The notes: generated from the letters alone by a model not told the origin. Counted from the stretch's first letter, positions 12,504 to 63,766 are shown. The stretch: 64,000 nucleotides of DNA from Chloroflexota bacterium (GCA_034189695.1 JAXHUA010000141.1:3341-67340), one strand, 5' to 3'. A program made the numbers and translations.

Positions 12504-12639
12504 TTCTACCTCCTTTTTCTGTTTCTTCGACGATCCCCTGCGGTTCCTCTAAAGGCTGCTCGTTCTCTCATCCCCCCCTTATCTTCCAGACTGGTGGCTG
12601 CGACACACTACAGCCTCCCCTCGGCTCTCCGCCTCTTGG

Positions 12640-12840
12640 GCCGAAAGAAAACCCCGCCCCCATGAAGGGGCGGGGTTCATTTCCGCGGTGCCACCCTTCT
12701 TGACCCTCTCCCATATGCCGGAGGAAGGGAAAAGGCCATCTCATCAATCAGCTACAAAGGCAAAATCCTCTCTTTGCCCAACTATAGCCTGGACTCTGAT
12801 AACGGTGTCCCTCCGTCAAAGCCTACTCCCCCAACAGGGT
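12640..12840 (-). ncRNA. T-box riboswitch leader with terminator upstream of trpB2 (Trp-tRNA specifier inferred)
   Basis: On the minus strand AGGGUGGCACCGCG (plus-strand coordinates 12684-12697) is followed by the hairpin AACCCCGCCCC/GGGGCGGGGUU (12650-12677) and a U-tract (12642-12649). An AGAGA Stem-I element lies at about 12767. The 5' end is approximate. Confidence 0.65.
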
Positions 12841-13105
12841 TTCGGTTCACAGCTCCCAAGCCCATTCACCCTCTGCGCTGGCATCGGCTCACACCTAACC
12901 CGACTCTCTGAGCCTCGCTGAAGGGCTACTACTCCTGTTCATAGCCTTTGGTTATTCCTGTTCACCGCCGCACCTGGGTCCTGCCCCAGCCTGCGCGGCT
13001 ATGTTAATGAGCAAGTCGCTCGGATTCTACCACAGCCCCACAGCCCCGTCAATACCTGTAGTCCGACTGAGCCCTGTGACCCGCGAACGAGAGGCGGACT
13101 GTGTG

Positions 13106-38565: not shown

Positions 38566-38793
38566 TTATCTGATACTACTTGTTGTTATCATGGAATACC
38601 AGGTGCCTCAATTCGGATGAAGGAGGCAGCGCGAATAAGGGGGAGAGGGAGGTGTTACAGGTATAGCGAGCGGGCGGGAGCTAATGGCCAAGGATGAAGC
38701 TGGCGAGGGGCATGCTGCGGCGTTGGCCGTTGTGTCATCTGGCTGGACAGGCCACACCGCACGGCGGGGCAATGTCCGTTGGAGGGGTCGCGG

Positions 38794-45714: not shown

Positions 45715-45828
45715 GGCGAATCCGTGAAAGCCAGTCATCCGCCAGACAAGCGAACTGAGAGTCACGACGGCTCCGCACACGGGCGGGGGCGGCAGGTGTA
45801 CGGAGCAAAGAGGACTGAGGGACAACCG

Positions 45829-48800
45829 ATGGACGAACTGACGAACACAGGACAGCGAGCTGCCGCATCGGCGGAAACGCATTCCGCTGGGTCGGTGACG
45901 CCGGACGATGGGCTGTACCGCTCTTTTGCCGAGTACGCCTCCGATTTCATCTGGACCATGGACATGAGCCTGCGCTACACCTACGTCAGTCCATCCGTGA
46001 CAAGCCTCCTGGGCTACACTGTCGAGGAGGCGAAGGACCTGAGGCTGGAAGACTTGATGGACCAACAGTACATTGACCTGGCTGCCAGCGTGCTGGCTGA
46101 GGAGTTGTCGGTCCAGCAGACACCTGACCTGGGGAAGTCGCGAACCTTGGAGTCCGAGCTGAAGCGCAAGGATGGTTCGACCGTGTGGGTCGAGTCAAGG
46201 ATGAAGTTCGTGCGAGATGCGAACGGGGAGCGAGTAGGCATCTCGGGGATCTCGCGTGACATAACGGAGCGGAAGCAGGCTCAGCAGAAGATAGAGCACC
46301 TCACACGGTTGTTGCGTGCCATCCGCAATGTCAATCGGCTCATTACGAAAGAGAGGGACCGCGACGCGCTGCTGGAGGCGGCGTGTCGCAATCTCGTTGA
46401 CACCCCGGGCTATGACAGCGCGTGGGTCTGTGTGTTTGGCGAACGTGGACGGCCGGTGTCCGTTGCTCAGGCCGGTCTGGGGGCGTGTTTCGTGCCGATG
46501 GAGGAGTGGCTGGTCGGGGGCAACCTGTCGAGCTGTGGTGAGAAGGCTTCGAAGGGGCCTGGTGTGGTAGTAACCAGGGCCTCGACTCGCGCCTGCGGCG
46601 ATTGCCCGTTGCTCTCCTGTTGTGCCAGCAGCTTGGCTGTGACGACTCGACTGGAGTGCGACGGGAAAGTCTACGGCGTGCTGTCGATCGTAGCCCCCTT
46701 GTGGCTCAAACCAGACACGGAGGAGCGGATGCTGCTCCAGGAGGTGGCGATGGACATCGCCTTCGCTCTCCAGACCATGGAATCGGAGGAGGAGCGCCGG
46801 GGTGCGGAGGAGGCGCTGAAGGAGTCAGAGGAACTCTCCCGGGGCCTGCTGGAGGCGGTGACGGTCGGGACGTACATTGTCCAGGACGGCAAGTTCCAGT
46901 ACGTGAACCCGCGGTTCCAGGAGATAACAGGTTACACCGGGCACGAGCTCCTCGGTACCCAGTCTCTGGACTACGTGCATACCGAGGACAGGGAGACGGT
47001 CCGTGGGAAGGCGATAGACTGTCTCAAGGGCAGGAGCAGTTCGGCCTACGAGTACCGGTACCTGCGCAAGGACGGCGACGTACTGTGGATTCTGGAGAGG
47101 GTGGCATCCATCGTGCATCGGGGGCGCCTGGCTACGGTGGGCAGCTTCATGGACATCACCGAGCGCAAACGCGCAGAGCACGCGCTGCGCGATAGCGAGG
47201 AGAAATACCGCAACCTGGTCGAACGAGCCAACGACGGTATCCTGATCATCCAGGGGGGCATCATCAAGTACGCCAACCAACGGTTGGCCGAGATGGGCGG
47301 GTATACGCTGAGCGACCTGATCGGGGTCCCATTCATCAGCTTCGTCCACCCTGACGAAGTCCGCAATGCGGCCAATCGCTACAAGCGACGGATGGCGGGA
47401 GAGACCCTTGAATCCGTGTACGAGACTGTTCTCAGGCGCAAGGACCGGTCCGACCTCCACGCCGAGATCAATGCCGGGGTGGTCACATACGATGACAGTG
47501 CCGCCGACCTGGTCTTCGTCCGCGACACCACAGAGCGCAGGATGGCTGAGGAGAACGCGCGGCAGTCCGAGATCAAGTATCACACCGCTCTCGAATCGGC
47601 GCGGGACGGTATCATCATAATCGACTCGGACGGCATCGTCGTTGATGTCAATCAAACGTGCCTGGGTGCGTTGGGATGCAACTCCAAAGACGAGGTGGTG
47701 GGGTCCCATGTTGTCGGCCTGCTGGCGCCGGAAACCCAGCGGCAAATGGAGCGGGGACTGCGGGGGAGTCTTGAAAAGACGCTGGTCGAGGGCAAGGGGT
47801 ACGTCACCAATCTCGAACTGGTGGCGCGCTCCGCAGACGGAAGGCAGTTCCCCATTGAGGTGAACGTTTCGCGCCTGAGCGATGAAAGGGGTCAGGGGAG
47901 AGGGAGCGTGATCGTGATTAGAGACATCACGGAGCGCAAGCGCGTGGAGAAGCAGCTCCTCGACCACACGATGCGCCTCGAGGCCCTTCATGCCATAAGC
48001 GCCGCGGTGATCCAGTCGCTCGATCTGGACACCATGCTGAAGAGCGCGCTCGACAAGGTGGTCGAGGTCATCGGAGCGAACGCTGGGTACATACACCTGT
48101 TCGACACTGAAAGCAGGGAACTGGTCCTGAAGGCGCAGCGCGGCCTCTCACAGCGGTACATTGAAGCGATAGGCAGACTCAGCGTGCGTGAGGAGGCGAT
48201 GCAGCGCTGGGCGACATACCCGGAGCCATCGTTCCGACCGGACGGCATCGTCGACCAGTTGGGCGACCGGTCGGTGGGCGCTGCCGACGGGTCCGACATG
48301 CTGCGGATTCTGGTGTCCATACCGCTGTGGTCGAAATCAGGAATGCAGGGGGGCCTTACGCTTGTTGGGAACACGTCGCGCCACTTCCCCCCCGAGGAAC
48401 TCGACCTCCTCAAGGCCATCGGCAACGAGATAGCGGTAGGAATAGAGAACGCCAGATTGCTTGGAAAGACCAAGCAGCTCTCCATAACGGATGAGCTGAC
48501 GGCGCTGCACAATCGCCGCCACTTCTATGAGGTGCTGGAGAACGAGATGAACCGCACCCAGCGCTACGGTCACTCCTTCTCACTGGTGATGGTCGACCTC
48601 GATGGTTTCAAGGAGTACAACGACAAGTACGGCCACACCAACGGTGATACCGTGCTGAGGTCGCTTGCCCAGATGCTCAAATCGTTGCTGAGGAAGAGCG
48701 ACACCGCGTTCCGCTACGGTGGAGATGAGTTCACCATCATTCTCCCTGGTACCGAGGTAGAGAAGGCGAAGAAGATAGTCGACCGGATACGGGACAGATG

Positions 48801-49611
48801 GCCGGAGATACCGAAGGCGGAATCGGCGGCACTGGATAACCCGCTGGGGTTCAGCGCCGGCATCGGCCAGTACCCCGACGATGCCGAAACCGCCGATGGA
48901 CTGATATTCCTCGCCGACACCGCCCTGTATCACTCCAAGAGGACCGGCGGGTACAGGTCAACCGTTGTGTCCGACCTGCCGAGCCTGGCGTTGAAGCATC
49001 ACGACAGAGCCACGCTGGACCACGTGTACGCCCTCTCGGCGACGGTGGACGCCAGGGACCCGTTCACTTACGGCCACTCCGAACGAGTCGCCACGATAGC
49101 GGAGATGATTGGGAGGGCGGCGGGTCTGCCCCCGGAAGAACTCGCCGACCTGGAGTTTGGCGCTCTGCTGCATGACATTGGCAAGGTTGGCGTTCCCGAC
49201 TCGATTCTCACCAAACCCGACAAACTCACTGAAAAGGAGTGGAGGGTGATGCGTAAGCATCCGGGTGAGGGAGCGAAGATAATCGGGCATGTCAAGGAGC
49301 TGGCTTCCGTGGTTCCCATGGTGCGGCACCATCACGAGTGGTACGATGGCAGCGGGTATCCGGACGGGATCAAGGGTGAAGAGATTCCCATCTGCGCTCG
49401 AATCATCAGCATAGCGGACGCCTATGACACCATGACCACGCTGCGTCCCTATCGGGTGCCAATGTCGCAGAGGGCGGCGTTGGAGGAACTGCGGCGCTGC
49501 TCCGGCACTCAGTTTGACCCGGAGCTGGTCGAGCACTTCGCCAGCGTTCTGAGTGAGGCGGATGCCCATGACGCAACGGGGGCGAAGTCGGTGTTCCCAG
49601 CGCGAAAATAG
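45829..49611 (+). CDS. paralogous multi-PAS - Cys-rich GAF-like - PAS - GAF - GGDEF - HD-GYP signalling protein
   Basis: About 1260 aa (1295 aa if the GTG at 45724 is used). The C-terminal 600 aa are highly similar to the upstream gene (LEALHAISAAVIQSLDLDTML, RKSD I-site, FRYGGDEFTIILPG, HDIGKVGVPD...HHEWYDGSGYPDGI). There is a Cys-rich insert (CGDCPLLSCC...LECDG) at about 46380-46700. Confidence 0.85.
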   Translation: MDELTNTGQRAAASAETHSAGSVTPDDGLYRSFAEYASDFIWTMDMSLRYTYVSPSVTSLLGYTVEEAKDLRLEDLMDQQYIDLAASVLAEELSVQQTPDLGKSRTLESELKRKDGSTVWVESRMKFVRDANGERVGISGISRDITERKQAQQKIEHLTRLLRAIRNVNRLITKERDRDALLEAACRNLVDTPGYDSAWVCVFGERGRPVSVAQAGLGACFVPMEEWLVGGNLSSCGEKASKGPGVVVTRASTRACGDCPLLSCCASSLAVTTRLECDGKVYGVLSIVAPLWLKPDTEERMLLQEVAMDIAFALQTMESEEERRGAEEALKESEELSRGLLEAVTVGTYIVQDGKFQYVNPRFQEITGYTGHELLGTQSLDYVHTEDRETVRGKAIDCLKGRSSSAYEYRYLRKDGDVLWILERVASIVHRGRLATVGSFMDITERKRAEHALRDSEEKYRNLVERANDGILIIQGGIIKYANQRLAEMGGYTLSDLIGVPFISFVHPDEVRNAANRYKRRMAGETLESVYETVLRRKDRSDLHAEINAGVVTYDDSAADLVFVRDTTERRMAEENARQSEIKYHTALESARDGIIIIDSDGIVVDVNQTCLGALGCNSKDEVVGSHVVGLLAPETQRQMERGLRGSLEKTLVEGKGYVTNLELVARSADGRQFPIEVNVSRLSDERGQGRGSVIVIRDITERKRVEKQLLDHTMRLEALHAISAAVIQSLDLDTMLKSALDKVVEVIGANAGYIHLFDTESRELVLKAQRGLSQRYIEAIGRLSVREEAMQRWATYPEPSFRPDGIVDQLGDRSVGAADGSDMLRILVSIPLWSKSGMQGGLTLVGNTSRHFPPEELDLLKAIGNEIAVGIENARLLGKTKQLSITDELTALHNRRHFYEVLENEMNRTQRYGHSFSLVMVDLDGFKEYNDKYGHTNGDTVLRSLAQMLKSLLRKSDTAFRYGGDEFTIILPGTEVEKAKKIVDRIRDRWPEIPKAESAALDNPLGFSAGIGQYPDDAETADGLIFLADTALYHSKRTGGYRSTVVSDLPSLALKHHDRATLDHVYALSATVDARDPFTYGHSERVATIAEMIGRAAGLPPEELADLEFGALLHDIGKVGVPDSILTKPDKLTEKEWRVMRKHPGEGAKIIGHVKELASVVPMVRHHHEWYDGSGYPDGIKGEEIPICARIISIADAYDTMTTLRPYRVPMSQRAALEELRRCSGTQFDPELVEHFASVLSEADAHDATGAKSVFPARK

Positions 49612-52260: not shown

Positions 52261-52977
52261 TCACTTCCTCACCCCGTCCAGGATGAACATGGAGCCGGCG
52301 TATATCTGGCCGATGACAGGCGTGACGGTGATCCTGGATATCCTCGAGGTGGTGTTGTTCCACCTGCCGGTAATGTGGCGTAGAGAGGAGCTTCCCAGGC
52401 CGGCAAAGCTGAGCCACTCCTTTTGCACTGTGGCGTCGCGGTTCTGGATGTAGATGAAGGCAACTCCGTAGTGGAGGTCGTCGAACATACCGAGCACGCC
52501 GAAGGTGTTCGCCTCTACCAGCGTGGTGCGTACACCGCTCGAGTCGGCGAGAAGGTCGCGGAAATCGTAGTTCTGTCCGTCGTCGTCGTTGAAGCGAAGG
52601 CCGGTGGACATGGGGCCGCCGTACGTTGACCTTCTGATGAGGGCGAGAAGCCTGAAGGCGGCGTGGTCCGCGGAGAGTCCCTCGAAGTCCACCGCCGTGG
52701 CGTTCTCGTCGAGGACTCTTGTCTCGATGTGTTCCCAGGGCCAGCCGCGCTGGCTGTGGCCCGAGGTGGAGAAGACGGCGGTCACCACGGCATCGTGCGG
52801 GTTGGACTCGTCCAGGAAGATGACGGCGCAGGGCAGGCCGGGGACCATCGTCGCCGGGGGTATGGCGCGTGACACGGGCACCCCTTCGAGCCACACCGAA
52901 AGACTGCCGGCAACCTGTACTGTGGCGGTGTAGGACTGGGGATCGAAGCCCTGTATGATTCCCTTTCTGATCATCAT
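52261..52977 (-). CDS. phage-like structural protein with N-terminal gpV/gp5-type OB-fold (baseplate spike-like), tentative
   Basis: The N-terminus GIIQGFDPQSYTATVQVAGSLSVWLEGVPV...GLPCAVIFLDESNPHDAVV resembles the Phage_base_V/VgrG OB-fold pattern; 238 aa. Confidence 0.35.
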   Translation of the reverse strand: MMIRKGIIQGFDPQSYTATVQVAGSLSVWLEGVPVSRAIPPATMVPGLPCAVIFLDESNPHDAVVTAVFSTSGHSQRGWPWEHIETRVLDENATAVDFEGLSADHAAFRLLALIRRSTYGGPMSTGLRFNDDDGQNYDFRDLLADSSGVRTTLVEANTFGVLGMFDDLHYGVAFIYIQNRDATVQKEWLSFAGLGSSSLRHITGRWNNTTSRISRITVTPVIGQIYAGSMFILDGVRK

Positions 52978-53019
52978 GGCGCTCCCTTCGTGTTGCTCGG
53001 GGCAAGCCCTTCACATTCC

Positions 53020-54969
53020 TCAGGGCAGGCCCAAGGCCATTCTCAGCGTGTAGTCGGCGGTGGCTGGGCCCCATCCATGCGCGAGGGCCAGGACGCGGCG
53101 TCTTGCGCCGCACAGGCCCGCCTGAGGGGACGTCACGTCGATGACGTCGAACAGGTCCTGGCCGCAGTTCATCGGGGCCAGGAGTTCGCCCCCGAGCCTC
53201 TCCATCTCGGCGTCTCTGATGACTGCAACGCCCCGCTGATGCGCCTTGTCGGTCGTGTCGAGGTTGATGTCCTGTACCTGCACGAGCCGGTCGCAGACAT
53301 CTTCGATGTCGTTCCAGCTCCACTCCTCGGTCATCAGGGCATCGCCGAATACCTGGGCTCGGTTGGCGGAAGCGATCTCCTCCCGGTAGCGCCCGCGAAG
53401 GATGGCATGGTCCGTGCCGTAGCTGTACGTGCTCTCGTCGCTTGCCTGCGGGTTCGTCAGGTAGGCCTTCTGGGCGATGAACAGTATGACGTCGGGGACC
53501 ATGTCGAGCAGGCGCTGCACGGCGGTGAGGGCGCTCTGGCCGGGATGAATGGTGAAGGCGGGCGTCTGGATTATGGCGCTGGAGGGCGAGTACGAGGTGA
53601 GTTCGAGACCGGCCCGGGCGAAGAGGAAGGAGAGAAGCTGGAAGATGTTGCGTGCGCCTGCCTGCCAGGTGAACTGCCTCCTGGCGCGCCAGCGTTCCAG
53701 CAGTGACCACCCATCGCGGGCATGCAGGACGAAGGTGCTGTGCCCGGGCGCGGTGACGTGCTCCCACGCTTCCAGCCAGAAGGCGGGCGCGGTTGCGGAC
53801 TTGGGGCCTTCGGAGGTGTGGTAGCCCAGGCGGAGGACGGCCTCGCTGCCCGGAGTGATTGGGGACTGGGGGTCGTTGTAGCGGCCGTCGTCGTTGCGCA
53901 GGGTGAGTTGAAGGCGCCCCGAGAAAGGCCGGATGGCGGTTGTCAGGGCGATGACGTCGTCGGAGAGCTCTACGGACTGGGGGAGTATTCGGGCGCGCCA
54001 CACGGCGTACGGGGCGCAGAGCCAGGCGTGGGAGGCGTCGTGGGTCAGGACGACGCCGTAGGCGCTGTCGAGGTTGAAGGGCACCGGCTCGCGCCACAGG
54101 CTGGAGATGAAATCGGCGCTGGGGAGTGAATGGCTCCAGTGGGGGCGCGAGTATGGCTCGTCGCCGGCGTAGCGTTCGACGAAGAAGAGCCGGCAGACGT
54201 CGGGGATGTCCAGCGAGGGTGCGAGGTACTCGGTGTACGAGTCGGCGCTGGCGGCGATGACCTCCTGCAGCTCGGACCACGAGTCGGGGGCCATGGTGTA
54301 GCCGTCGCCCAGGACGCACGTCCACAGCCCTGGCCCGCCGGCGGCGTCAACGCCGCTCACCGCCGCGTTCCAGTCTCCAAAATGGACCACGGCGATGCCG
54401 GTCACGGCGGTGAGCGTGCTAGTCCAGGGTGCCGGCTGCTCCCAGACGCCTCCGATGCGGCGGCGCCGGTAGACTGTCGCCCCGTCGGAATACAGGACCA
54501 GCGCATCGCCGTTCGCCTTGAAGCAGGCGGCCACGCGGTAGTCGGCGCAGTCGCCGCCGATGTAGGTCATGTCGATGGGGTCGCCCCAGGTGTCGCCGCA
54601 GGTTGTGCTCTCCCTGCGCCGCAGCCAGCCGGTGCTCTGCACCCAGAAGGCGAGGACCTCATTGCCCCGCGAGCATACGGCCACGTCGGAGCCGGTGTAG
54701 CCCCAGTAGTACCAGTGTGAGAAGTCGCTCTCCGGCCCGGGGTCGGGGACGCGCTGGCGATAGATGCCGCCTCCGCCCCTGAGCCGTACCAGGCTGCCGT
54801 CGCCGGGCATGGTGGCGTCCGTGTGGCAGTCGGGCTCCTCGCCGCTGTACAGCCGCTCCCATCGCAGGCGGGTGGCTGCCCCGAGCTTCTCGACCAGTTC
54901 TACCCTGAGGTACGGCCTGGCCGTGGCGCTCCTCTGGGCGGCCAGCAAAGCGCTCGGCAGTGCTCTCAT
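53020..54969 (-). CDS. large phage-like structural protein (649 aa), beta-rich, possible tail/host-interaction or glycosidase-like protein
   Basis: No Walker motifs; Trp/Tyr/Gly-rich repeats (WYYWGYTGSD, YSDGATVYRRR) suggest a beta-propeller/BNR-like fold; positioned after the head genes. Confidence 0.35.
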   Translation of the reverse strand: MRALPSALLAAQRSATARPYLRVELVEKLGAATRLRWERLYSGEEPDCHTDATMPGDGSLVRLRGGGGIYRQRVPDPGPESDFSHWYYWGYTGSDVAVCSRGNEVLAFWVQSTGWLRRRESTTCGDTWGDPIDMTYIGGDCADYRVAACFKANGDALVLYSDGATVYRRRRIGGVWEQPAPWTSTLTAVTGIAVVHFGDWNAAVSGVDAAGGPGLWTCVLGDGYTMAPDSWSELQEVIAASADSYTEYLAPSLDIPDVCRLFFVERYAGDEPYSRPHWSHSLPSADFISSLWREPVPFNLDSAYGVVLTHDASHAWLCAPYAVWRARILPQSVELSDDVIALTTAIRPFSGRLQLTLRNDDGRYNDPQSPITPGSEAVLRLGYHTSEGPKSATAPAFWLEAWEHVTAPGHSTFVLHARDGWSLLERWRARRQFTWQAGARNIFQLLSFLFARAGLELTSYSPSSAIIQTPAFTIHPGQSALTAVQRLLDMVPDVILFIAQKAYLTNPQASDESTYSYGTDHAILRGRYREEIASANRAQVFGDALMTEEWSWNDIEDVCDRLVQVQDINLDTTDKAHQRGVAVIRDAEMERLGGELLAPMNCGQDLFDVIDVTSPQAGLCGARRRVLALAHGWGPATADYTLRMALGLP

Positions 54970-54978
54970 GTCGCCGCC

Positions 54979-55254
54979 TCAGCGGGAGGCGAGATCTCGA
55001 GCGGCGGCTATCGCCTCGCTGAACTCGCGGCCCACGTTCTCGAACGCCTGCGTTATCTCACGGCGTTGCTCCGGAGTCGTGGTCGGCTCCTCGAGGGCGT
55101 GGTGCATGCTCAGGCCGCACACGCCGAGGGCCACCACGGCCTCGGAGGTCTCCTTGAGCAGCGTCAGGCCCTTGCGCCATTTTGCCCCCAGGAGCCCCGA
55201 CACGATGCCCAGCAGGGGCACGATGATGGTGGCTGCGATCTCCCATGCGCTCAT
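54979..55254 (-). CDS. small membrane protein (holin-like), 91 aa
   Basis: The N-terminal TM (IAATIIVPLLGIVSGLLGA) is followed by a charged C-terminus; a perfect AAGGAGG RBS lies 6 nt upstream of the ATG at 55254. The listed 251-aa ORF is an Arg/Pro-rich artefact upstream. Confidence 0.55.
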   Translation of the reverse strand: MSAWEIAATIIVPLLGIVSGLLGAKWRKGLTLLKETSEAVVALGVCGLSMHHALEEPTTTPEQRREITQAFENVGREFSEAIAAARDLASR

Positions 55255-55335
55255 GTTCTGTTCCTCCTTTCGTTTGGTGCTGGTTGTCGGTTTACGGCCT
55301 TTCGATGGGGCGGTGGGTGATTGAGGTGGGGGCCT

Positions 55336-55423
55336 GGGGCCGTTCATGCCCCTCACTTCGCTCGGGACAAGGTTCGACAGGCCTGCCCTGAGCTTGTCGA
55401 AGGGCTCACCACGAACGGCTGGG
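55336..55423. repeat. 88-bp repeat unit (MITE/REP-like), a perfect inverted copy of 58135-58222
   Basis: GGGGCCGTTCATGCCCCTCACTTCGCTCGGGACAAGGTTCGACAGGCCTGCCCTGAGCTTGTCGAAGGGCTCACCACGAACGGCTGGG. It contains an internal hairpin TTCGACA...TGTCGAA and imperfect terminal inverted repeats CCGTTC/GAACGG. Confidence 0.9.
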
Positions 55424-55493
55424 GTGTGGCCACTGGGCGACGTGGGCCGTTGATGCCTCTGAGTTCGTCCACTGCTGCCTCGCCGTTCATGGG

Positions 55494-55832
55494 TCACACC
55501 AGGGCGAGCAGGGTGTCGGGCACCGGGCGCGCGGCGTGGCGGTAGTGACCTGCCAGGTGCCTGGCCGCGCTGAGTATCCGCTCGGGCGCTGCGCTGACTC
55601 TCTCGCCTCGGTGGCCGCCGGGGGACAGCGCCGCCACCGCGGCCGGCATGCGGTCCCAGTCGACGGTCTTCTCGACGTCGAGCTTCCCCTTGAGGGCGCG
55701 GAAGATGGCCCGGGTGTGGTGTGGCAGCTTCCACGTGTCGGGGTCGTCCGGGTCGCCCACGATGGCGAACGCGTCGCTGGGAAGGCCGTCCTTGGTCGGC
55801 GGGAGACCTTCTTTCACTCTGGCGTTGGACAT
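55494..55832 (-). CDS. hypothetical phage-module protein (112 aa)
   Basis: Conserved position between the connector-like gene and the small membrane protein; no recognisable motif. Confidence 0.35.
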   Translation of the reverse strand: MSNARVKEGLPPTKDGLPSDAFAIVGDPDDPDTWKLPHHTRAIFRALKGKLDVEKTVDWDRMPAAVAALSPGGHRGERVSAAPERILSAARHLAGHYRHAARPVPDTLLALV

Positions 55833-55885
55833 CGCTACCTCCTTTCCAGGCCGGGGCGGAGCTGATGCTCCTCCCTAACCGGATG

Positions 55886-56518
55886 CTATGGCCCTGGGTC
55901 TGTGGAGAGGCCCCTGATGGGTGCCGCCGGAGTGTAGAGGCGGGTGCCCCTCACCTTGCCGCGTCGCCCGAGCCTCCTCAGTTCCTCCCTGAAGTGGGAC
56001 AGCCTTTGCCGTCCCTCGACGGCAAAGCGGTCGGGCGTGTCGATGCCGCCAAGGTTGACCTGGTTGATGGCGAAGGCGGCCCACTCCACCAGGGCATACC
56101 CTTCGGCGCCGTTGGCTATCAGGTCCTCAAAAGGTGGTGGGATGGTCGAGGTGTCGCCGTCGAGGGTGTGGAGCTTGCCGTAGGCGACGCGGCAGTCGGA
56201 GCCGTCGGGCACTTCGTCGCCGAGCACCGTGAGCGTGTCTTTCCAGATGGCGAAGCGCTGGTAGCACGGCGGGAAGCGGCCCACGGGGTACTCGGCCGCC
56301 TGGACGAGGACGCGGTCGGACAGGGTCGAGATGTCGATCTCACGCGAGCCCTCGGTGGTGGGCAGGAGCGCCGTTTGCTCCTGCGGCACCGCCAGCGAGA
56401 ACTCCCGCACCGCGTGGGCGATGTGGCGGTCGAGTTCGTCGTCGCTCCAGCGTCGGTTCTCCGGGTCCTCGTCGTGCAGGTCCCGTCTGACTGTGCAGCG
56501 CATCTCGCTCAGGTCCAT
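55886..56518 (-). CDS. putative head-tail connector/adaptor protein (gp6-like), tentative
   Basis: 210 aa, acidic, helical N-terminus (MDLSEMRCTVRRDLHDEDPENRRWSDDELDRHIAHAVREF), directly downstream of the capsid gene as in HK97-type head modules. Confidence 0.4.
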   Translation of the reverse strand: MDLSEMRCTVRRDLHDEDPENRRWSDDELDRHIAHAVREFSLAVPQEQTALLPTTEGSREIDISTLSDRVLVQAAEYPVGRFPPCYQRFAIWKDTLTVLGDEVPDGSDCRVAYGKLHTLDGDTSTIPPPFEDLIANGAEGYALVEWAAFAINQVNLGGIDTPDRFAVEGRQRLSHFREELRRLGRRGKVRGTRLYTPAAPIRGLSTDPGP

Positions 56519-56529
56519 CTACGCTCTCC

Positions 56530-56660
56530 TTCTGTCTTCACTCCCCCCTCCCTCCCGCTTCCTCCCTCCCGCGAGGGGAGGGAGGAACCGCTCCACACTC
56601 CCTTGAGGGAGAGGGCAAGGCCTGCCCTGAGCTTGTCGAAGGGGTGAGGGTGAAACGCCC
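56530..56660. repeat. composite intergenic repeat: GA/CT palindromes (TTCCTCCCTCCC-GCGA-GGGGAGGGAGGAA; CTCCCTTGAGGGAGAGGG) plus a CCTGCCCTGAGCTTGTCGAAGGGG unit
   Basis: Shares the CTTCGACAAGCTCAGGGC core with copies at 55379, 58083, 58153, 61697, 61789 and a diverged copy at about 17490-17515. Confidence 0.8.
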
Positions 56661-56674: not shown

Positions 56675-57577
56675 CTACGAGCCAACCGGCCTCACGCCGA
56701 TGAGGCGCGCCAGCTTCACGGTGCTGAAGAGCGCCAGGCCGACGTACCACTTGATGCGCGTCCGCGTGGCGTCCTTGGCCTCGAGCTGGCCGACGCGCTC
56801 CACCTGTATCCCGCCGGGCGCGGTCAACCCGCACAGCGCCCCCTCGCCCATCTGGAAGGCGTAGATGGTGGAACAGTCGGAGCTGGTGCCGACGACCTTG
56901 TTGTCGCCTACCCAGTCGCTGATGGCCACCGGGATGCCGTTGTACAGCTCGATGAACGCGCCCCAGTCGTCGCGCTCCACCTGGAGGTACGAGCCGGCGG
57001 CGCGGGAGAGCTGGTTGAGGCTTCGGCGGGTGCGTCGGCTCATGAGCAGCAGCTCCGGCTTGCCCCCTTTGACCATGTCTACCAGCTCATCGAGCTTGTC
57101 GAGCGTGAGTGCTCCGCCGTTGTCGCCCATGGAGAGCGTCTGGCCGGTGGTCTGGCATATCTTGTCGACGCCCTCGAAGTCCTTGGATGCCCCGGTGCCC
57201 AGCCCGTTGATGAAGGTGTCCTCGAACTCGTGGCGCACCGCCTTGGCGTTCAGCTCGACCACCGCCGCCTCGACGTCCTGGAGATTGGAGCGGGTCGCCT
57301 TGATGAAGTTGTCCACGTCGGCGTTGGCCCCGACGATCTCCAGCCCGGCGGTCACCTGCTCGAGGGTGGGCGCCGTCTCCGCGCTCCACTCCTCGTTCTC
57401 GTCGTACCACGCCACGGTGGGCAGGGTGCTCTCACGGTTGTACGTCAGGCCGTTGCCCACGATCTCAATGAAGGGCAGCTTCTGAAGGACGGGGGAGTCC
57501 TTGATGATGGTCTCGATGACGCCCAGAAGCAGGACGTCGTTCGACAGTTTGGATGCTTCGGCGAGTGTGATAGCCAT
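56675..57577 (-). CDS. putative major capsid protein (HK97-fold-like)
   Basis: 300 aa; translationally coupled (3-nt gap) to an upstream coiled-coil scaffold-like protein; C-terminal region alpha/beta-rich, like MCPs. The family assignment rests on context and composition only. Confidence 0.5.
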   Translation of the reverse strand: MAITLAEASKLSNDVLLLGVIETIIKDSPVLQKLPFIEIVGNGLTYNRESTLPTVAWYDENEEWSAETAPTLEQVTAGLEIVGANADVDNFIKATRSNLQDVEAAVVELNAKAVRHEFEDTFINGLGTGASKDFEGVDKICQTTGQTLSMGDNGGALTLDKLDELVDMVKGGKPELLLMSRRTRRSLNQLSRAAGSYLQVERDDWGAFIELYNGIPVAISDWVGDNKVVGTSSDCSTIYAFQMGEGALCGLTAPGGIQVERVGQLEAKDATRTRIKWYVGLALFSTVKLARLIGVRPVGS

Positions 57578-57580
57578 CGG

Positions 57581-58051
57581 CTATGCCTCCTTTCCCAGTG
57601 CGTAGTGGATCTTCTCCCTGGGGGACATGGCGGACAGATCGGGGACGGCGCGCTCCGGGGCGCCGGCCGGCACGTGCGTCGCCTTGAGGTCTTCCTCCAG
57701 TGTTTGCCGCACCCGCCCCGCCATATCCCGTGCCCGGTCGAGTGACGCGTCGATGTCGGCGATGGTCGCGCCGGCGACCATCTCCTCCGGGATCTGCGGG
57801 TTGGCGGCGACGAGCGCCGCGCGGTAGCTGGCCACCGCCTCATGCAGCGTTTCGGTCGCCGCCGCCAGCTCGGCGTCCCTCTCATCGAGCGCCGCCTTCA
57901 TCGAGGTCAGCTCCTGCTGGCCGGCGTCGTTCGCCGCCAGCGCCTCGGCAAGCTGCGCCTGGAGTTCGCCGAGCCTGGCGTCTCTCTCCCCAAGCTGCGC
58001 TTTCAAGCCCTCCAGTTCCGTCTGTACCATTGCAGTCTCTTCCTCGTTCAT
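57581..58051 (-). CDS. putative scaffolding protein (coiled-coil)
   Basis: 156 aa, strongly helical Ala/Glu/Leu-rich (LEGLKAQLGERDARLGELQAQLAEALAAND...), immediately upstream of the capsid gene. Confidence 0.5.
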   Translation of the reverse strand: MNEEETAMVQTELEGLKAQLGERDARLGELQAQLAEALAANDAGQQELTSMKAALDERDAELAAATETLHEAVASYRAALVAANPQIPEEMVAGATIADIDASLDRARDMAGRVRQTLEEDLKATHVPAGAPERAVPDLSAMSPREKIHYALGKEA

Positions 58052-58059: not shown

Positions 58060-58340
58060 TCCTTGAAAGTCTTCGCTTTCACCCCTTCGACAAGCTCAGG
58101 GCGAACCGTTGGCAAGGTCGTGGTGAGCCGCCGGCCCAGCCGTTCGTGGTGAGCCCTTCGACAAGCTCAGGGCAGGCCTGTCGAACCTTGTCCCGAGCGA
58201 AGTGAGGGGCATGAACGGCCCCGGGCGAACGCTTGGCACTCACCCTAGCCCTCTCCCGTCAAGGGAGAGGGAATGTGCTGCCGCGAGCCGCGGGAGGTGC
58301 AACTGTCCTCCCTCCCCCAGAAGGAGGGGGATGCCTCCTT
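58060..58340. repeat. repeat-dense intergenic region (two CCCTTCGACAAGCTCAGGGC units, a CCCTCTCCC-GTCAA-GGGAGAGGG hairpin, and a CCTCCCTCCCCC/GGAGGGGG hairpin)
   Basis: Direct inspection. The units recur at 61683-61860 and 56530-56660. Confidence 0.8.
58135..58222. repeat. 88-bp repeat unit, reverse-complement copy of 55336-55423 (100% identity)
   Basis: Exact reverse complement over 88 bp. Together the two copies bracket 55424-58134 (scaffold, capsid and two small head genes). Confidence 0.9.
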
Positions 58341-58395
58341 CACTCGCCAGCGTGCCACGCACTCTCACGCTCCCCGCTGGCGACTGCACCGAGGA

Positions 58396-58411
58396 TAGAA
58401 CACATGTTCTA
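58396..58411. promoter_or_regulatory. operator-like palindrome TAGAAC-ACAT-GTTCTA, 26 nt upstream of the -35 of the R-M gene promoter
   Basis: 6-bp perfect arms. The same TAGAAC-N4-GTTCTA motif occurs at 63497-63512 and nowhere else in the window. The downstream promoter is TTGACA (58438-43)-17-TACCAT (58461-66), followed by an AGGAGG RBS. Confidence 0.55.
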
Positions 58412-58492
58412 CGCGCGTCAAGCCAGAAATGTCACGGTTGACATGCTTGAGAGCGGCCACTACCATTGTGGTGCTCGCATAGGAGGCGTTGG

Positions 58493-61400
58493 ATGGCAGC
58501 GGACCTCAAGCCGCTCCGGGAGTACGCACGCGCGGTGGCGCGGGAACTGGGGGTGGGCAACACCACGGAGCACAGCCACCGGCCGGCGCTGAAGGGCCTG
58601 CTCGAGGCGCTCGACGGCAGGGTCGTGGCGACCAATGAGCCGAAGCGCATAGCCTGTGGTGCCCCAGACTTCGTGGTCACACGTGGTGCCTCGGTGGTGG
58701 GCTACATCGAGGGCAAGGACGTCGGCAGCAGCCTCGACGACGCCGAGCGTTCGGAGCAGATGGAGCGCTACCTCCCATCGCTGAGCAACCTGGTGCTCAC
58801 CGACTACCTCAGCTTCCGCTGGTACGTCGACGGCCACCTGAGGCTATCCGCCCGCCTGGGCCGGGCGTCACTGTCGGGCAAGGTGCTCGTGGACAGGGAC
58901 GGCCTCAACGCCGTGGCCGATCTGCTCGCCTCCTTCCTGTGCCACACCGCCGAGGGCGTCGGCACACCGAGGGAGCTGGCCGAGCGCCTGGCGCGCCTGG
59001 CCCGCCTGGCCCGCGGCCTTATCGCCAACGCGATTGCCAGCGAGGCCGAGGCCGGCCCCCTCCACGGCCAACTGGCCGCGTTCCGTGACAACCTCATTCC
59101 CGACCTGAGCCCGGAGCGGTTCGCCGACATGTATGCCCAGACCATGGCCTACGGCCTGTTCGCCGCGCGCTGCGCCGCGGACGGCGGCTGCTTCACTCGC
59201 CAGAACGCCGGGTACCTCCTGCCCCGGACCAACCCCTTCCTGCGCAACCTCTTCGGCGACATCGCCGGCCCGAACCTCGACGACCGAGTCGCCTGGCTCG
59301 CCGACGACCTGGCGCAGGTGCTGGCGCAGGCCGACATGGACGCCGTGCTGCGCGATTTCGGGCGGAGGACGGCCACCGAGGACCCGGTGGTGCATTTCTA
59401 TGAGACCTTCCTGGGCCGGTACGACCCGAGGGAGCGCCAGGTACGCGGGGTGTACTACACCCCCGAGCCGGTGGTGTCCTACATCGTGCGCTCGGTCGAC
59501 CACCTGCTCAGGACGCGCTTCAACAGCCCCGAGGGCCTGGCCGACCCCCGCGTCCTCATCCTCGACCCCGCTGTGGGCACCGGCACCTTCCTCTACAGCA
59601 TAGTCCGGAAGATCCACGAGGCCTTCGTGCGCCAGGGGCAGGGTGGCCTCTGGAACGACTACGTGGCCGACCGTCTCCTGCGGCGCCTGTTCGGCTTCGA
59701 GCTGCTGATGGCCCCCTACGCCGTGGCCCACCTCAAGCTGGGGCTGCTGCTCCGCGAGACCGGCTACCGGTTCCAGGCCGACCAGCGCCTTGGCGTATAC
59801 CTGACCAACACCCTGGAGGAGGCCTTCACCCGCTCCCAGCTCCTCGCCGGGTTCAACCGCTACATCGTTGACGAGGCCAACGCCGCCGCGCGCATCAAGA
59901 AGGAGAAGCCCATCATGGTGGTGCTGGGCAATCCACCCTACGCGGGCTTCTCCGCCAACGCGAGCACGCGCATGGTGAAGGAGGGCAGGAGCAAGCGGAT
60001 GAAGCGTGACTTGACCTGGATTGGCCGCCTCATCCAGGACTACAAGCAGGTCGATGGCGGGCCGCTGGGAGAGAGGAACCCCAAGTGGTTGCAGGACGAC
60101 TACGTCAAGTTCATCCGCTTCGGCCAGTGGCGCATCGAGCAGACCGGCCACGGCATCCTCGCGTTCATCACTAACCACGGCTACCTGGACAACCCGACCT
60201 TCCGCGGCATGCGCCAGTCGCTGATGAATACGTTCAGTGACATCTACGTCCTGGATCTCCACGGCAACGTGAAGAAGCGCGAGAGCGCGCCCGACGGCGG
60301 CCCCGACCAGAACGTGTTCGATATCCAGCAGGGGGTCGCCATCGGCATCTTCGTCAGGGAGCCTGGCCGGGAGAGGCCCGGGCGGGTGCAGCATGCCGAC
60401 CTTTGGGGGGCGCGTGGTGACTGGCCCGATCCCGAAGAGGGGACGAAGTACCGCGCGCTCGCGGAGACGGACGTCTCAACGACCTCTTGGGAGCCCTTGG
60501 CCCCCGCGACACCGGCCTATTTCTTCGTGCCCCGGGACGAGGTGCTGGCTGCCGAGTACCATCAGGGGTGGAAGGTAACGGACATCTTTCCGCTCCACAG
60601 CGCGGGCATCGTCACCGCGCGCGACAGCCTCGCGGTGGCATGGAGCGCGCAGGAAATGTGGCACACACTTGCGGACTTCGCTTCGCTGGAACCCGAGGCC
60701 GCGCGAGAGAAGTACAGGCTCGGTGCCGACGCCCGGGACTGGAGCGTGTCAATGGCCCAGGCGGACGTCACGGCCAGCGGTCCCACCCCCGACCGCGTGG
60801 TACCCCTGCTGTATCGGCCCTTCGACGTCAGGTTCACCTACTACACCGGGCGCTCCCGTGGCTTCCAGTGCATGCCGCGCCCAGACGTCATGCGCCACAT
60901 GCTGGGCGGCGCCAATGTTGCGCTCATCACTGTTCGCAAGGTGCCCCGCGGCCAGGCGGCGGGCTACTTCTCTGCTGCGCGCTTTCCGGCGAGCAATGGG
61001 GCGATACGCTCCGACAACCAGAGTATCGACTACGTTATCCCGCTGTACGCTTGGGCCGCACAAGGCGAGATGCAGTTTCAGGGAGAGCCGCGCCGGGCCA
61101 ATTTGAACCCGGCCTTCAGCAACGCCGTTTCGGACGCGCTAGCGCTGCGCTTCGTGGCCCACGGCAGCGGTGACCTGGAGCAGTCTTTCGGCCCGGAGGA
61201 CGTGTTCCACTACATCTACGCAGTGCTCCACTCGCCGGCGTACCGCAGCCGCTACGCGGACTTCCTCAAGACCGACTTCCCGCGCGTTCCCCTGACCTCG
61301 GAAAGGGGGCTCTTCGCGGCGCTCGCCGCCAAGGGCGCCCAGCTGGTCGCGCTGCACCTCATGGAGTCGCCCCTCCCGGCCACCCTCATCACCGGCTATC

Positions 61401-61681
61401 CGGTGGCGGGCACCGACATAGTGGAAAGGGTGAGCTACGACGCCGCGACCGGCCGCGTCCACATCAACAAGACGCAGTACTTCGATGGCGTGCCCCGCGA
61501 CGTCTGGGAGTTCCACGTAGGCGGCTACCAGGTGTGCCATAAATGGCTCAAGGACCGCAAGGGACGCAAGCTGGCCTACGATGACAAGACCCACTACCAG
61601 CGGGTTGTGGTGGCGCTGAACGAAACCGTACGCCTGATGGCTGAGATCGACGCCCTCATCCCGTCGTGGCCCATCGACTAG
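58493..61681 (+). CDS. Type IIG (MmeI-like) restriction-modification fusion enzyme: N-terminal PD-ExK nuclease, N6-adenine methyltransferase and C-terminal specificity domain
   Basis: The N-terminus has PDFVV...GYIEGKD (a D...ExK nuclease motif like MmeI). MTase motif I is LDPAVGTGTFL; motif IV is VLGNPPYAGFS (NPPY). The C-terminal HVGGYQVCHKWLKDRKGRKL...ETVRLMAEIDALI block is the TRD/coupler seen in MmeI/Type ISP C-termini. There is no helicase. ATG 58493 follows an AGGAGG RBS; the ORF tool opens at TTG 58466. Confidence 0.75.
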   Translation: MAADLKPLREYARAVARELGVGNTTEHSHRPALKGLLEALDGRVVATNEPKRIACGAPDFVVTRGASVVGYIEGKDVGSSLDDAERSEQMERYLPSLSNLVLTDYLSFRWYVDGHLRLSARLGRASLSGKVLVDRDGLNAVADLLASFLCHTAEGVGTPRELAERLARLARLARGLIANAIASEAEAGPLHGQLAAFRDNLIPDLSPERFADMYAQTMAYGLFAARCAADGGCFTRQNAGYLLPRTNPFLRNLFGDIAGPNLDDRVAWLADDLAQVLAQADMDAVLRDFGRRTATEDPVVHFYETFLGRYDPRERQVRGVYYTPEPVVSYIVRSVDHLLRTRFNSPEGLADPRVLILDPAVGTGTFLYSIVRKIHEAFVRQGQGGLWNDYVADRLLRRLFGFELLMAPYAVAHLKLGLLLRETGYRFQADQRLGVYLTNTLEEAFTRSQLLAGFNRYIVDEANAAARIKKEKPIMVVLGNPPYAGFSANASTRMVKEGRSKRMKRDLTWIGRLIQDYKQVDGGPLGERNPKWLQDDYVKFIRFGQWRIEQTGHGILAFITNHGYLDNPTFRGMRQSLMNTFSDIYVLDLHGNVKKRESAPDGGPDQNVFDIQQGVAIGIFVREPGRERPGRVQHADLWGARGDWPDPEEGTKYRALAETDVSTTSWEPLAPATPAYFFVPRDEVLAAEYHQGWKVTDIFPLHSAGIVTARDSLAVAWSAQEMWHTLADFASLEPEAAREKYRLGADARDWSVSMAQADVTASGPTPDRVVPLLYRPFDVRFTYYTGRSRGFQCMPRPDVMRHMLGGANVALITVRKVPRGQAAGYFSAARFPASNGAIRSDNQSIDYVIPLYAWAAQGEMQFQGEPRRANLNPAFSNAVSDALALRFVAHGSGDLEQSFGPEDVFHYIYAVLHSPAYRSRYADFLKTDFPRVPLTSERGLFAALAAKGAQLVALHLMESPLPATLITGYPVAGTDIVERVSYDAATGRVHINKTQYFDGVPRDVWEFHVGGYQVCHKWLKDRKGRKLAYDDKTHYQRVVVALNETVRLMAEIDALIPSWPID

Positions 61682-61682
61682 G

Positions 61683-61870
61683 CGGCCTCACCCTCACCCC
61701 TTCGACAAGCTCAGGGCTGGCCTTGCCCTCTCCTCGCCACGGTCGAGTCTTCGACCCTCGAGGGAGAGGGGATGTGCCCCCGCACCGTTCACCCTTCGAC
61801 AGGCTCAGGGCGAACGGTGATGGCCGCCGTTCGCGGTGAGGCCTTCGCCCCGGCTGAGGGCAGGCCCTCA
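61683..61870. repeat. repeat-dense intergenic region between the R-M gene and the portal gene (units CTCACCCTCACCCCTTCGACAAGCTCAGGGC, CCCTCTCC...GGGAGAGGG, CACCCTTCGACAGGCTCAGGGCGAACGG)
   Basis: Same repeat family as at 55.3, 56.6 and 58.1 kb. Confidence 0.8.
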
Positions 61871-63238
61871 TCCACCCTCTGCCCCGCTCTGGCGGGCGTT
61901 GAGGTCGCGGTTCATCTGGAGGATGCGCTTTCGCTCCTCCAGCCAGGCGTCGAACTCGAGTCCGGGGCTGTCCACCCCGAGGTACTCCATGGCGCGGCGG
62001 CGCGAGTGGACGCCGCTCTGGATGAGCGCCACCTCGGTGGCCGCCTCCCGCTCGCGGTCGCGGGGCAGCACCGGTCCCCACACGATGCGGTGCGACAGGC
62101 GGCCGAAGCGCTCGCCGGTGAAGCGCTCAATGAGCGCCAGCACCATCTCGTTGCGCCGGCGGTAGGCCGCAGTGCGCACCAGGCGCTTGCGGGCCACCTT
62201 CTGGAGCAGCGGCTGCATCTCGATCTCCAGCGCCACCCCTGACAGGTCGCGGCCGGCGGTGCCGAAGGCGGCGCGGGGGGACTCGGAGATGTCGTGCAGC
62301 GTGCGGTACAGTAGGTCGATGTAGTCGATGTGGAGCCGCACCCCACCTCCCTGGAGCAGGTCGAGCAGGTACGCCCGCGCCTCCTCGGGAATGTTCCACA
62401 CCGCCCCGGGCTGCACCGCGATGTCCTGCGACGACTCCACGTTCTCCAGCACGGCGATGGGGTTGCCCGAAAGCTCCAAGATGCGTGAGAGCTGCGACAG
62501 CGCCCGGTTCAGCTCGCGCTGCGCCTCCATCAGCACTGGAATGTCCGACACGCCCCAGAAACGCTTCGGCTGGCACAGGTTGGGGAATATGACGAACGGG
62601 ATGAAGCCATATGGGTTGGGCGCCGTCGTGATGCACTCGTCGTCGAGCCACAGCTCGAAGGCCCTGTCGGTCCACACCTCCGCCACCCACGCCGTCCTTC
62701 CTGACGGCCTGCTGCCGTGGAGCAACTCCACCTCGTCGGCGCTGAGCTGGTAGCGAGAGGCGACCCGGTACACCGTGCCGACATCGTCTGGCAGCCACCA
62801 GGCGTAGAGCCCCTGCACGTCGGGCGCGGTCACCCGGACGCGCCCGTCGGCCACGTCCCAGGTCACCTTGTATGCTGCGTCGCCGAGGACAGCGCAGTCG
62901 GTCTCGGTGTCGAAGTCGAGGGCTTCCAGGTTGTTGTCGCGGTACACCTGGTGCAGCGCCGCCTCCGCCGCCACGGCGCGCTGCCGCGCGTCGTCACCGT
63001 CCTCGACGGGATCGACGGTGAAGCCCATGCCGGACATGAGGTACGAGGTCGTCTTGTCGACGATGGCCTTGGCGTAGTTGAAGGTGAGGTGCTTCTCGCC
63101 CCTGGTGGCCCGCGCCGGCCACTGCGCGCCGTTGTAGAAGGCCAGGCTCCCGGCATAGCGCTTCATCCGGTCGCGGTCCGTGCGCGCGAGCTGCTGCGGC
63201 AGGGCTGGACCGTTCATCCTCCACCCCCCGCGGCGCAC
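61868..63238 (-). CDS. phage portal protein (SPP1/HK97-like portal family)
   Basis: 456 aa; N-terminal FNYAKAIVDKTTSYLMG-type portal motif, central GFIPFVIFPN, and an acidic C-terminus. The start is GTG 63238 or ATG 63217, overlapping the upstream HTH gene stop. Confidence 0.6.
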   Translation of the reverse strand: MRRGGWRMNGPALPQQLARTDRDRMKRYAGSLAFYNGAQWPARATRGEKHLTFNYAKAIVDKTTSYLMSGMGFTVDPVEDGDDARQRAVAAEAALHQVYRDNNLEALDFDTETDCAVLGDAAYKVTWDVADGRVRVTAPDVQGLYAWWLPDDVGTVYRVASRYQLSADEVELLHGSRPSGRTAWVAEVWTDRAFELWLDDECITTAPNPYGFIPFVIFPNLCQPKRFWGVSDIPVLMEAQRELNRALSQLSRILELSGNPIAVLENVESSQDIAVQPGAVWNIPEEARAYLLDLLQGGGVRLHIDYIDLLYRTLHDISESPRAAFGTAGRDLSGVALEIEMQPLLQKVARKRLVRTAAYRRRNEMVLALIERFTGERFGRLSHRIVWGPVLPRDREREAATEVALIQSGVHSRRRAMEYLGVDSPGLEFDAWLEERKRILQMNRDLNARQSGAEGG

Positions 63239-63486
63239 GCCTGCGGTCTGCGTCCGGCGATGACGCGATAGACGGTGCGCCGGCTCACGCCGAAGCGCCG
63301 CGCCAGCTCGTGCACCGCCACGCCATCACCATAAAGCCGCACCATCCGCTCGTTCCTCAGCTCCTTGGCGGTCTGCTTGCCCGGTCGGTCGTAGCGGCAG
63401 GTCGCCAGGGGGCAGTTGAGGCAGGAGGGGAAGAGGTCGCACCCCTCGTCGCGGTAGGCGCAATGCTCGGGCACGAAGTCGTCCAT
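63214..63486 (-). CDS. small Cys-rich (CX6CX5CX2CX4C) HTH DNA-binding protein; candidate controller or terminase-small-subunit-like protein
   Basis: 90 aa; five Cys near the N-terminus in HCAYRDEGCDLFPSCLNCPLATC; a C-terminal HTH ELARRFGVSRRTVYRVI. It is the first gene of the portal operon, and its mRNA appears leaderless. Confidence 0.55.
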   Translation of the reverse strand: MDDFVPEHCAYRDEGCDLFPSCLNCPLATCRYDRPGKQTAKELRNERMVRLYGDGVAVHELARRFGVSRRTVYRVIAGRRPQACAAGGGG

Positions 63487-63492
63487 GCCCCG

Positions 63493-63521
63493 ATGATAGA
63501 ACTAATGTTCTATACTGTCAA
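63493..63521 (-). promoter_or_regulatory. minus-strand promoter TTGACA-17-TATCAT for the HTH-portal operon, with the TAGAAC-TAAT-GTTCTA palindrome inside the spacer
   Basis: The -35 is the reverse complement of 63516-21 and the -10 the reverse complement of 63493-98. The palindrome at 63497-63512 overlaps the -10 and spacer. The ATG at 63486 is 6 nt downstream of the -10, which implies a leaderless transcript. Confidence 0.55.
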
Positions 63522-63635
63522 TGGTATTCTGTCACTGACGCGCTCCACCCCGGGCTTTCCTCTGCTGTTGCGAGCGGAGCCGCAGGCTTCGCGAAGCGAT
63601 CTCAGCGGCGGGCGGCAGGGAGCAGTGCACGGTGG

Positions 63636-63766
63636 TTGACGCGGCGGGCGTCCTGTGGTATTCTTACTGCTCCAGCAAGCGGGGGCGAAGAAGCGGGGCC
63701 TTCATTTGGGCGCTTGGGCTCCGTGGAGTCAGTAGCGAAACCGACCGCAGGGTCGGTTTCTTTTTT
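63636..63766 (+). ncRNA. candidate small RNA or attenuator leader: an extended -10 promoter, an approximately 95-nt transcript, and a strong intrinsic terminator
   Basis: TTGACG (63636-41), 17 nt, a TG-n-TATTCT extended -10 (63656-64); then the hairpin GAAACCGACC-GCAG-GGTCGGTTTC (63737-60) plus a TTTTTT tract (63761-66). There is no ORF of 30 aa or more in between. Confidence 0.35.

Follow-up and report, generated by a model that had tools for sequence, protein, structure and literature searches.

Two copies of the 16-bp palindrome TAGAAC-N4-GTTCTA, named O1 and O2, are present in the 64,000-nucleotide (nt) stretch of a Chloroflexota bacterium that we analyzed (GCA_034189695.1, JAXHUA010000141.1:3341-67340; hereafter, the window). 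We conclude that they are very probably Chloroflexota LexA operators located in two promoters (P1 and P2) of a phage-derived packaging and head gene cluster of roughly 13 kb, that the Type IIG restriction-modification (R-M) gene near O2 is inserted cargo, and that P2 is a diverged copy of P1. This conclusion builds on what we observed of motif identity, promoter geometry, conservation, and LexA boxes at lexA promoters in the phylum. The coordinates of the features are listed in Table 1.

A pattern search found exact matches to TAGAACNNNNGTTCTA only at the two positions given by the preliminary description of this DNA, and none were found in 100 dinucleotide-preserving shuffles of the window. 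Elsewhere in the window, there are no perfect GAAC-N4-GTTC cores; O1 and O2 are the whole set. On the window strand, the letters are TAGAACACATGTTCTA at 58396-58411 (O2) and TAGAACTAATGTTCTA at 63497-63512 (O1). Both sites have symmetric TA flanks on a perfect GAAC-N4-GTTC core, in agreement with the LexA-operator consensus. A promoter scan located O1 between the −35 and −10 hexamers of P1, the promoter of a gene for a 90-amino-acid (aa) cysteine-rich helix-turn-helix protein (Cys-HTH), confirming the repressing position originally proposed. The scan also revealed the previously undescribed P2, with O2 between its hexamers in the same architecture as at the HTH promoter. From the R-M gene to the scaffold gene, the scan gave no sigma-70-like site on the minus strand other than P2. 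P1 and P2 have one palindrome each, and both palindromes lie in the spacer of a strong minus-strand sigma-70 promoter and overlap the −10. Because each sits between minus-strand promoter hexamers, O1 and O2 can be regarded as in-promoter operators of the phage-like cluster. From their positions, P1 is predicted to drive the Cys-HTH and portal genes, and P2 the scaffold, major capsid protein, and adaptor genes plus three further genes. Since only 6 nt separate the −10 of P1 from the ATG of the HTH gene, a leaderless HTH transcript is plausible, and the P1 transcript is probably leaderless for this gene.

In Firmicutes and Actinobacteria, the LexA motif is GAAC-N4-GTTC, and variations of it occur in Chloroflexi (PMC4951493, citing the work of Fernandez de Henestrosa (2002) on Dehalococcoides ethenogenes). 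This Gram-positive-type (Cheo) box is also reported for D. ethenogenes. We scanned metagenomes for the exact 16-mer pattern followed 75 to 105 nt later by a G-Y-P-P coding motif. The scan yielded 97 loci, with approximately 8 expected by chance (a rough estimate), and 80 of the 97 encode LexA. In 69 LexA open reading frames (ORFs), the box is located 20 to 81 nt upstream, often inside a TTGACA-...-TATAAT promoter as in the window. The best match was a Chloroflexota-labelled LexA for every one of these 69 metagenomic proteins; one of them clusters with NCBI HLC23721.1 (LexA [Dehalococcoidia bacterium]), and another clusters with Anaerolineae clusters. Independently of the motif, a homologue search supplied six further LexA proteins with Chloroflexota/Dehalococcoidia names, whose contigs we then inspected. 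A perfect GAAC-N4-GTTC core was detected just 5' of lexA in five of these six independently chosen genes. In the contig L137, the box TAGAACATTAGTTCTA, identical to O1, lies 17 nt 5' of a Chloroflexi lexA. A box before lexA, as autoregulation predicts, is present in Chloroflexota relatives. The preliminary description had itself held that a motif common genome-wide would speak against its proposal; the motif turned out to be a phylum-wide LexA box 5' of lexA genes.

Two additional searches were conducted. When plasmids were searched by tblastn for Chloroflexi LexA, no Chloroflexi record was among the matches listed. A homologue search with a synthetic Gram-positive-type LexA consensus returned Firmicutes and Coriobacteriia names only. 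Many Anaerolineae-like contigs were seen to carry two adjacent lexA paralogues of about 212-215 aa and 203-208 aa (L038, L042, L045, L046, L061, L069, L074, L076, L079, L094, L102, L106, L121, L125, and others). Each paralogue has GAAC-N4-GTTC boxes of its own, and the second promoter has two boxes.

O1 and O2 share core, spacing, and the repressing position in or near a promoter with the Gram-positive LexA/SOS (Cheo) box, and LexA of Bacillus subtilis is reported to bind the D. ethenogenes operator. Nevertheless, a different repressor, encoded by the host or by the element, may read TAGAAC-N4-GTTCTA, the likeness to an SOS box being coincidental or the sites being shared. LexA was assigned to O1 and O2 from sequence, and the TA...TA flanks go beyond the canonical core, which could mean another specificity. 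However, the extended 16-mer, flanks included, occurs exactly as such before Chloroflexota lexA genes, and the annotated cluster loci yielded no gene for another regulator. We consider a non-LexA repressor very improbable.

Next to motif identity, conservation supports the assignment to LexA. Relatives of the portal gene were found in 32 loci of Dehalococcoidia and Chloroflexia metagenome-assembled genomes (MAGs). With the strict pattern AGAAC-N4-GTTCT, the box was detected in just 2 of the 32 related genome loci. A relaxed search, in which one arm mismatch was allowed (at least 11 of 12 arm positions), showed that the box is conserved: the related loci, 391 kb in total, contain 29 sites. With few exceptions, these lie where the HTH/portal operon starts; several loci have one at the gene for the terminase small subunit-like protein (terS) as well. 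The usual operator form in the relatives is TAGAACAT(A/T)TGTGCTA; its G gives the promoter an extended −10 (TGn). A P1-homologous promoter with a box upstream of HTH/portal is kept in most related loci. In the Chloroflexia loci L027, L029, and L031, the box is located approximately 75 nt 5' of the portal gene and a Cys-HTH gene is lacking. Across the relatives, the operator is nearly invariant, while the HTH proteins drop to 40-50% identity.

These data bear on the earlier proposal that one dimeric regulator, most simply Cys-HTH, acts at both palindromes in the manner of the controller (C) proteins of R-M systems, repressing its own promoter and activating or tuning the R-M gene. The HTH gene is indeed located directly 3' of O1, its family co-occurs with the cluster in Dehalococcoidia, and O2 ends 26 nt 5' of the R-M promoter −35 (TTGACA, 58438), a spacing that we confirmed. 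One dimeric regulator for both sites is probably correct; that this regulator is Cys-HTH is contradicted by the Chloroflexia loci, which keep the box without the HTH gene, by the divergence of the HTH proteins at a nearly invariant operator, and by the presence of the palindrome as a LexA box at lexA promoters across Chloroflexota. Cys-HTH is not needed to account for the palindrome. The R-M gene also fails as a second target: O2 lies inside a minus-strand promoter as the operator of the scaffold/capsid promoter P2, its center is at about −70 relative to the R-M promoter, from where repression of the R-M gene is not expected, and no relative has the R-M gene.

C genes such as those of C.PvuII and C.AhdI adjoin the R gene that they control and are co-transcribed with it, and C proteins bind a two-operator C-box 5' of their own gene. 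The locus in the window resembles such systems in that a palindromic operator is close to an R-M gene and a small HTH protein is encoded. In contrast to C genes, however, the HTH gene is 5 kb away in a separate operon, that of portal, which runs on the opposite strand; from where the R-M gene ends, the HTH gene is 1.5 kb distant. As a Type IIG protein, the R-M enzyme consists of a single chain, and it was found in this genome only; the operator is a single palindrome, one LexA box, not a two-operator C-box. Regulator and R-M gene do not co-occur in the related loci, with the HTH gene present in 20 loci and the R-M gene in 0. Further, Cys-HTH matches HTH_7/HTH_23 rather than the Xre type (HTH_3, 18 bits at a cutoff of 23). 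The proposed R-M/capsid controller circuit falls away because the flagged site is most probably an ordinary SOS box, and we judge control of both palindromes by Cys-HTH to be very unlikely.

The R-M gene itself was correctly called as Type IIG. Its product matches PADLOC REase_MTase_IIG (PDLC03610) with 5e-285, the Pfam families Type_ISP_C (1.5e-89) and N6_Mtase, and the site-specific adenine DNA methyltransferase of PDB 7LO5 (E = 8e-48). A GGAGG is found 5' of its ATG at 58493. The gene was absent from all 32 related genome loci and from all eight viral-collection fragments and was seen in the window only. In the closest relative, L003, the gap between portal and scaffold is 140 nt and has neither a promoter nor a box. 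The insertion in the window amounts to 4.6 kb and contains the R-M gene, the R-M promoter, and P2. It is bracketed by direct copies of the 20-nt repeat CCCTTCGACAAGCTCAGGGC, two on each side. This repeat is present in six copies, all in intergenic gaps of the phage-like cluster; the remaining two are at 55385-55404 and 56624-56643. No promoter-like or terminator-like site was detected in the interval from the R-M stop to the portal stop. Taken from its sequence context, the R-M gene is probably inserted cargo, and its regulation by the SOS response is unlikely.

When P1 and P2 were aligned (alignment A1), they had GTGACA-N8-TTGAC-N4/5-TAGAACATNNGTTCTATCNTCGGNGCA in common, a pattern that extends past the box. 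Because of this common pattern, we consider P2 a diverged copy of P1. The portal-scaffold junction was found to differ between genomes, ranging from 140 nt to 2.5 kb with differing ORFs (L021, 11320-13435; L022 and L023, about 11300-13250; L003, 2195-2333). This variation in length and ORF content suggests that the junction is an insertion hot spot.

According to the LexA model, host LexA would repress P1, P2, and, in the relatives, the terS promoter. A LexA dimer on O1 or O2 would block RNA polymerase, since both operators occupy the promoter spacer and reach into the −10. Upon DNA damage, RecA-stimulated self-cleavage of LexA would switch on all cluster operons together, and P1 and P2 would jointly express the head part of the phage-derived cluster. 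The R-M gene with its own promoter would have been inserted in opposite orientation between portal and scaffold, splitting the ancestral operon, and P2 would provide the genes cut off by the insertion with LexA-controlled expression.

Several points weigh against this model. We infer from the DNA that LexA binds O1 and O2, that the SOS response induces the cluster, and in which order the insertion and the duplication of the promoter took place. The metagenomic lexA set was chosen by the motif, and the six-gene set alone is free of this bias. In the lexA promoter of L134 (Dehalococcoidales STB_164), the one exception in the six-gene set, there is no site that matches at least 10 of 12 positions. 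No lexA gene was found by tblastn with Escherichia coli and Bacillus subtilis LexA in the window or in 34 loci. Finally, a repeat-rich leader of approximately 335 nt extends from P2 to the scaffold gene and could attenuate transcription. Regarding L134 (JAQTRN010000011.1), we note that it and L033 (JAQTRN010000054.1) belong to one MAG, STB_164, which carries the phage-like cluster.

What Cys-HTH does was considered separately. The preliminary description rightly called it a cysteine-rich HTH protein: C16, C22, C25, and C30 are invariant across 33 homologues, and the Pfam matches are HTH_7 (9e-10), HTH_23 (8e-8), and Mor (7e-5, under its cutoff). PHROG matches were to DNA-binding families and, weakly, to late transcriptional activator families. 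In an AlphaFold2 (AF2) model, helices 39-79 are confident and the Cys region is poorly modelled; a fold search with this model gave generic HTH matches only, with E > 0.1. Cys-HTH was also considered as a terminase small subunit, which is unlikely because the relatives carry a separate terS-like gene. Among the relatives, 20 genome loci and three viral-collection fragments carry the HTH gene. In Dehalococcoidia HTH and terS promoters, we detected an (A/G)TGACAAAA element at a fixed position 8 nt 5' of the −35. It is not present in the promoters of Chloroflexia, whose loci are without the HTH gene. Speculatively, this element could be the site of Cys-HTH or an UP-like element.

These findings allow an extension of the LexA model, in which LexA represses via the palindrome and Cys-HTH then activates the cluster promoters via (A/G)TGACAAAA, comparable to Mu Mor/C or to the auxiliary factors of the phage GIL01. 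The fixed position of the element in Dehalococcoidia promoters, P1 and P2 included, and its absence in Chloroflexia are consistent with this, as are the Mor and PHROG late-activator matches. GIL01, in which host LexA acts together with small phage proteins, provides a precedent (PMC4551915, PMC6182141). However, the −35 and −10 elements are already near-consensus, and therefore an activator may be superfluous. The element has no dyad, the Mor match remains under the Pfam cutoff, the fold search was generic only, and Cys-HTH could act in DNA packaging instead. We regard activation by Cys-HTH on top of LexA repression as rather unlikely, and keep LexA repression as the explanation of the palindromes.

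The genes served by P1 and P2 belong to a cluster with a conserved order in the relatives: terS-like and terL-like (terminase large subunit-like) genes, an immunoglobulin (Ig)-domain protein gene on the opposite strand, Cys-HTH, portal, scaffold, capsid, adaptor, and genes for proteins of approximately 89 and 669 aa. The scaffold slot right after portal is kept in the relatives. Apart from terS, terL, portal, scaffold, major capsid protein, and adaptor, the content is unassigned genes. The window stops short of the terminase side; within it, a gene for a PKD-domain protein on the opposite strand adjoins the HTH gene, a layout as in the relatives. The three further genes of the cluster in the window, encoding proteins of 126, 652, and 249 aa with no family matches, have homologues in L003 and other loci, where their order is unchanged. 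The annotated loci showed no integrase, repressor, or replication genes. In IMG/VR, the cluster was represented by fragments of 4 to 10 kb only, and a complete phage genome was not present.

Housekeeping genes directly flank the cluster in L005 and in the window. In at least six Dehalococcoidales loci, the left flank consists of pheS, the RNase P RNA gene (rnpB), rnhA, and a CT398-like gene (the same flanks in L005, L006, L010, L012, L013, and L018). In both the window and L003, the cluster is followed by gyrB. The major capsid protein is 92% identical to its L003 homologue. Between the window and L003, the ratio of nonsynonymous to synonymous substitution rates (dN/dS) of the cluster genes ranges from 0.06 (capsid) to 0.20, with dS values of 1.0-1.4 in comparison to 1.5 for gyrB. 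The cluster is thus at a fixed chromosomal position, vertically inherited, and under purifying selection. The dN/dS and dS values and the synteny fit a vertically inherited, selected cluster, which may therefore be like a gene transfer agent (GTA).

Table 1. Positions of operators, promoters, genes, repeats, and the candidate element in the window
Feature	Position	Strand or reading	Description
Operator O1, SOS-box type	63497..63512	minus-strand reading TAGAACATTAGTTCTA	within promoter P1; exact match
Operator O2, SOS-box type	58396..58411	minus-strand reading TAGAACATGTGTTCTA	within promoter P2; exact match
Promoter P1, TTGACA-17-TATCAT	63493..63521	-	promoter scan, 11/12 match, 17-nt spacer
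Promoter P2, TTGACG-18-TATCCT	58392..58421	-	promoter scan; faces scaffold/capsid genes
R-M gene promoter, TTGACA-17-TACCAT	58438..58466	+	promoter scan, 10/12 match; divergent from P2
Type IIG restriction-modification enzyme gene, full-length	58493..61681	+	opposite orientation to cluster
Left bracket, two CCCTTCGACAAGCTCAGGGC copies	58083-58102, 58154-58173	+	in P2 leader
Right bracket, two CCCTTCGACAAGCTCAGGGC copies	61698-61717, 61792-61811	+	between R-M stop and portal stop
90-aa Cys4 + helix-turn-helix protein gene	63214..63486	-	first gene of P1 operon
(A/G)TGACAAAA-like element	63529-63538 (P1, GTGACAGAAT); 58430-58439 (P2, GTGACATTTC)	-	
SPP1-type portal protein gene	61868..63238	-	Pfam SPP1_portal 1.7e-16; PHROG 64 8.8e-32
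Scaffold protein gene	57581..58051	-	weak Phage_scaffold / PHROG 194 matches; first gene 3' of P2
Major capsid protein gene, HK97 / SU10-like	56675..57577	-	PHROG 212 3.4e-66; Pfam Phage_capsid, SU10_MCP
SU10-type head-tail adaptor gene	55886..56518	-	Pfam SU10_adaptor 1.7e-6; conserved in relatives
Three further conserved cluster genes (126 aa, 652 aa, 249 aa)	52261..55874	-	gyrB next

We compared the cluster with two systems that involve LexA. The temperate Bacillus thuringiensis phage GIL01 has promoters that are repressed directly by LexA of its host (PMC4551915, PMC6182141). The cluster in the window is similar in that there is no CI-type repressor and host SOS boxes are in the promoters, so that DNA damage would derepress them directly. 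In contrast, GIL01 is a replicating linear tectivirus with LexA sites 3' of its early promoter (also named P1) and needs the helpers gp7 and gp6, whereas the cluster in the window has its boxes in the −35/−10 spacers of structural and packaging operons and is chromosomal and syntenic, with no replication or lysogeny genes seen. The GTA of Rhodobacter capsulatus (RcGTA) is likewise a small head and packaging cluster at a fixed position, with vertical inheritance, purifying selection, and a global regulator of the host. LexA affects RcGTA production (PMC6363796, citing Kuchinski 2016). However, RcGTA resembles a siphovirus, and the effect of LexA on it is indirect, via CckA/CtrA, whereas the cluster in the window is SU10/podovirus-like and has LexA boxes directly in its promoters. 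With respect to usual SOS targets, the predicted targets here are not DNA-repair genes but two phage-cluster operons (three in the relatives).

We also observed elements related to cyclic di-GMP (c-di-GMP) in the window. A c-di-GMP-II riboswitch (RF01786, 65.4 bits at a gathering score of 53.5) is located on the plus strand at 63636-63766, with the aptamer at 63672-63755. A separate promoter (TTGACG-17-TATTCT with TG) precedes it, an intrinsic terminator is found at 63737-63766, and the PKD-domain protein gene follows, with its start at 63827. In 10 related loci, no c-di-GMP-II riboswitch was found before the equivalent Ig-protein gene. About 14 kb away from the riboswitch, a 1298-aa PAS/GAF/GGDEF/HD-GYP protein, a c-di-GMP turnover enzyme, is encoded at 45715-49611 (+), adjoined by an ORF of 2338 aa at 38698-45714 (+).

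In the literature that we searched, no paper tied GTAs to Dehalococcoidia. Tentatively, we suggest as a possible rather than a likely scenario that Dehalococcoidia and, distantly, Chloroflexia have vertically inherited a podovirus-derived GTA-like particle system with terminase and head operons directly wired to LexA and particle production triggered by DNA damage, that the portal-scaffold junction serves as a hot spot for cargo such as the Type IIG R-M gene, at which the LexA-controlled promoter is duplicated with each insertion, and that the PKD gene is additionally controlled by the c-di-GMP-II riboswitch in this genome. The window offers a clear predicted case in which host LexA occupies the very promoters of packaging and head operons of phage origin. 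The locus would also show how an operon may outlive the insertion of a defense gene by gaining a second, regulated copy of its promoter. Apparently domesticated, the cluster is kept throughout a class with few cultured members; if it makes particles upon DNA damage, this would have a bearing on gene flow in Dehalococcoidia.

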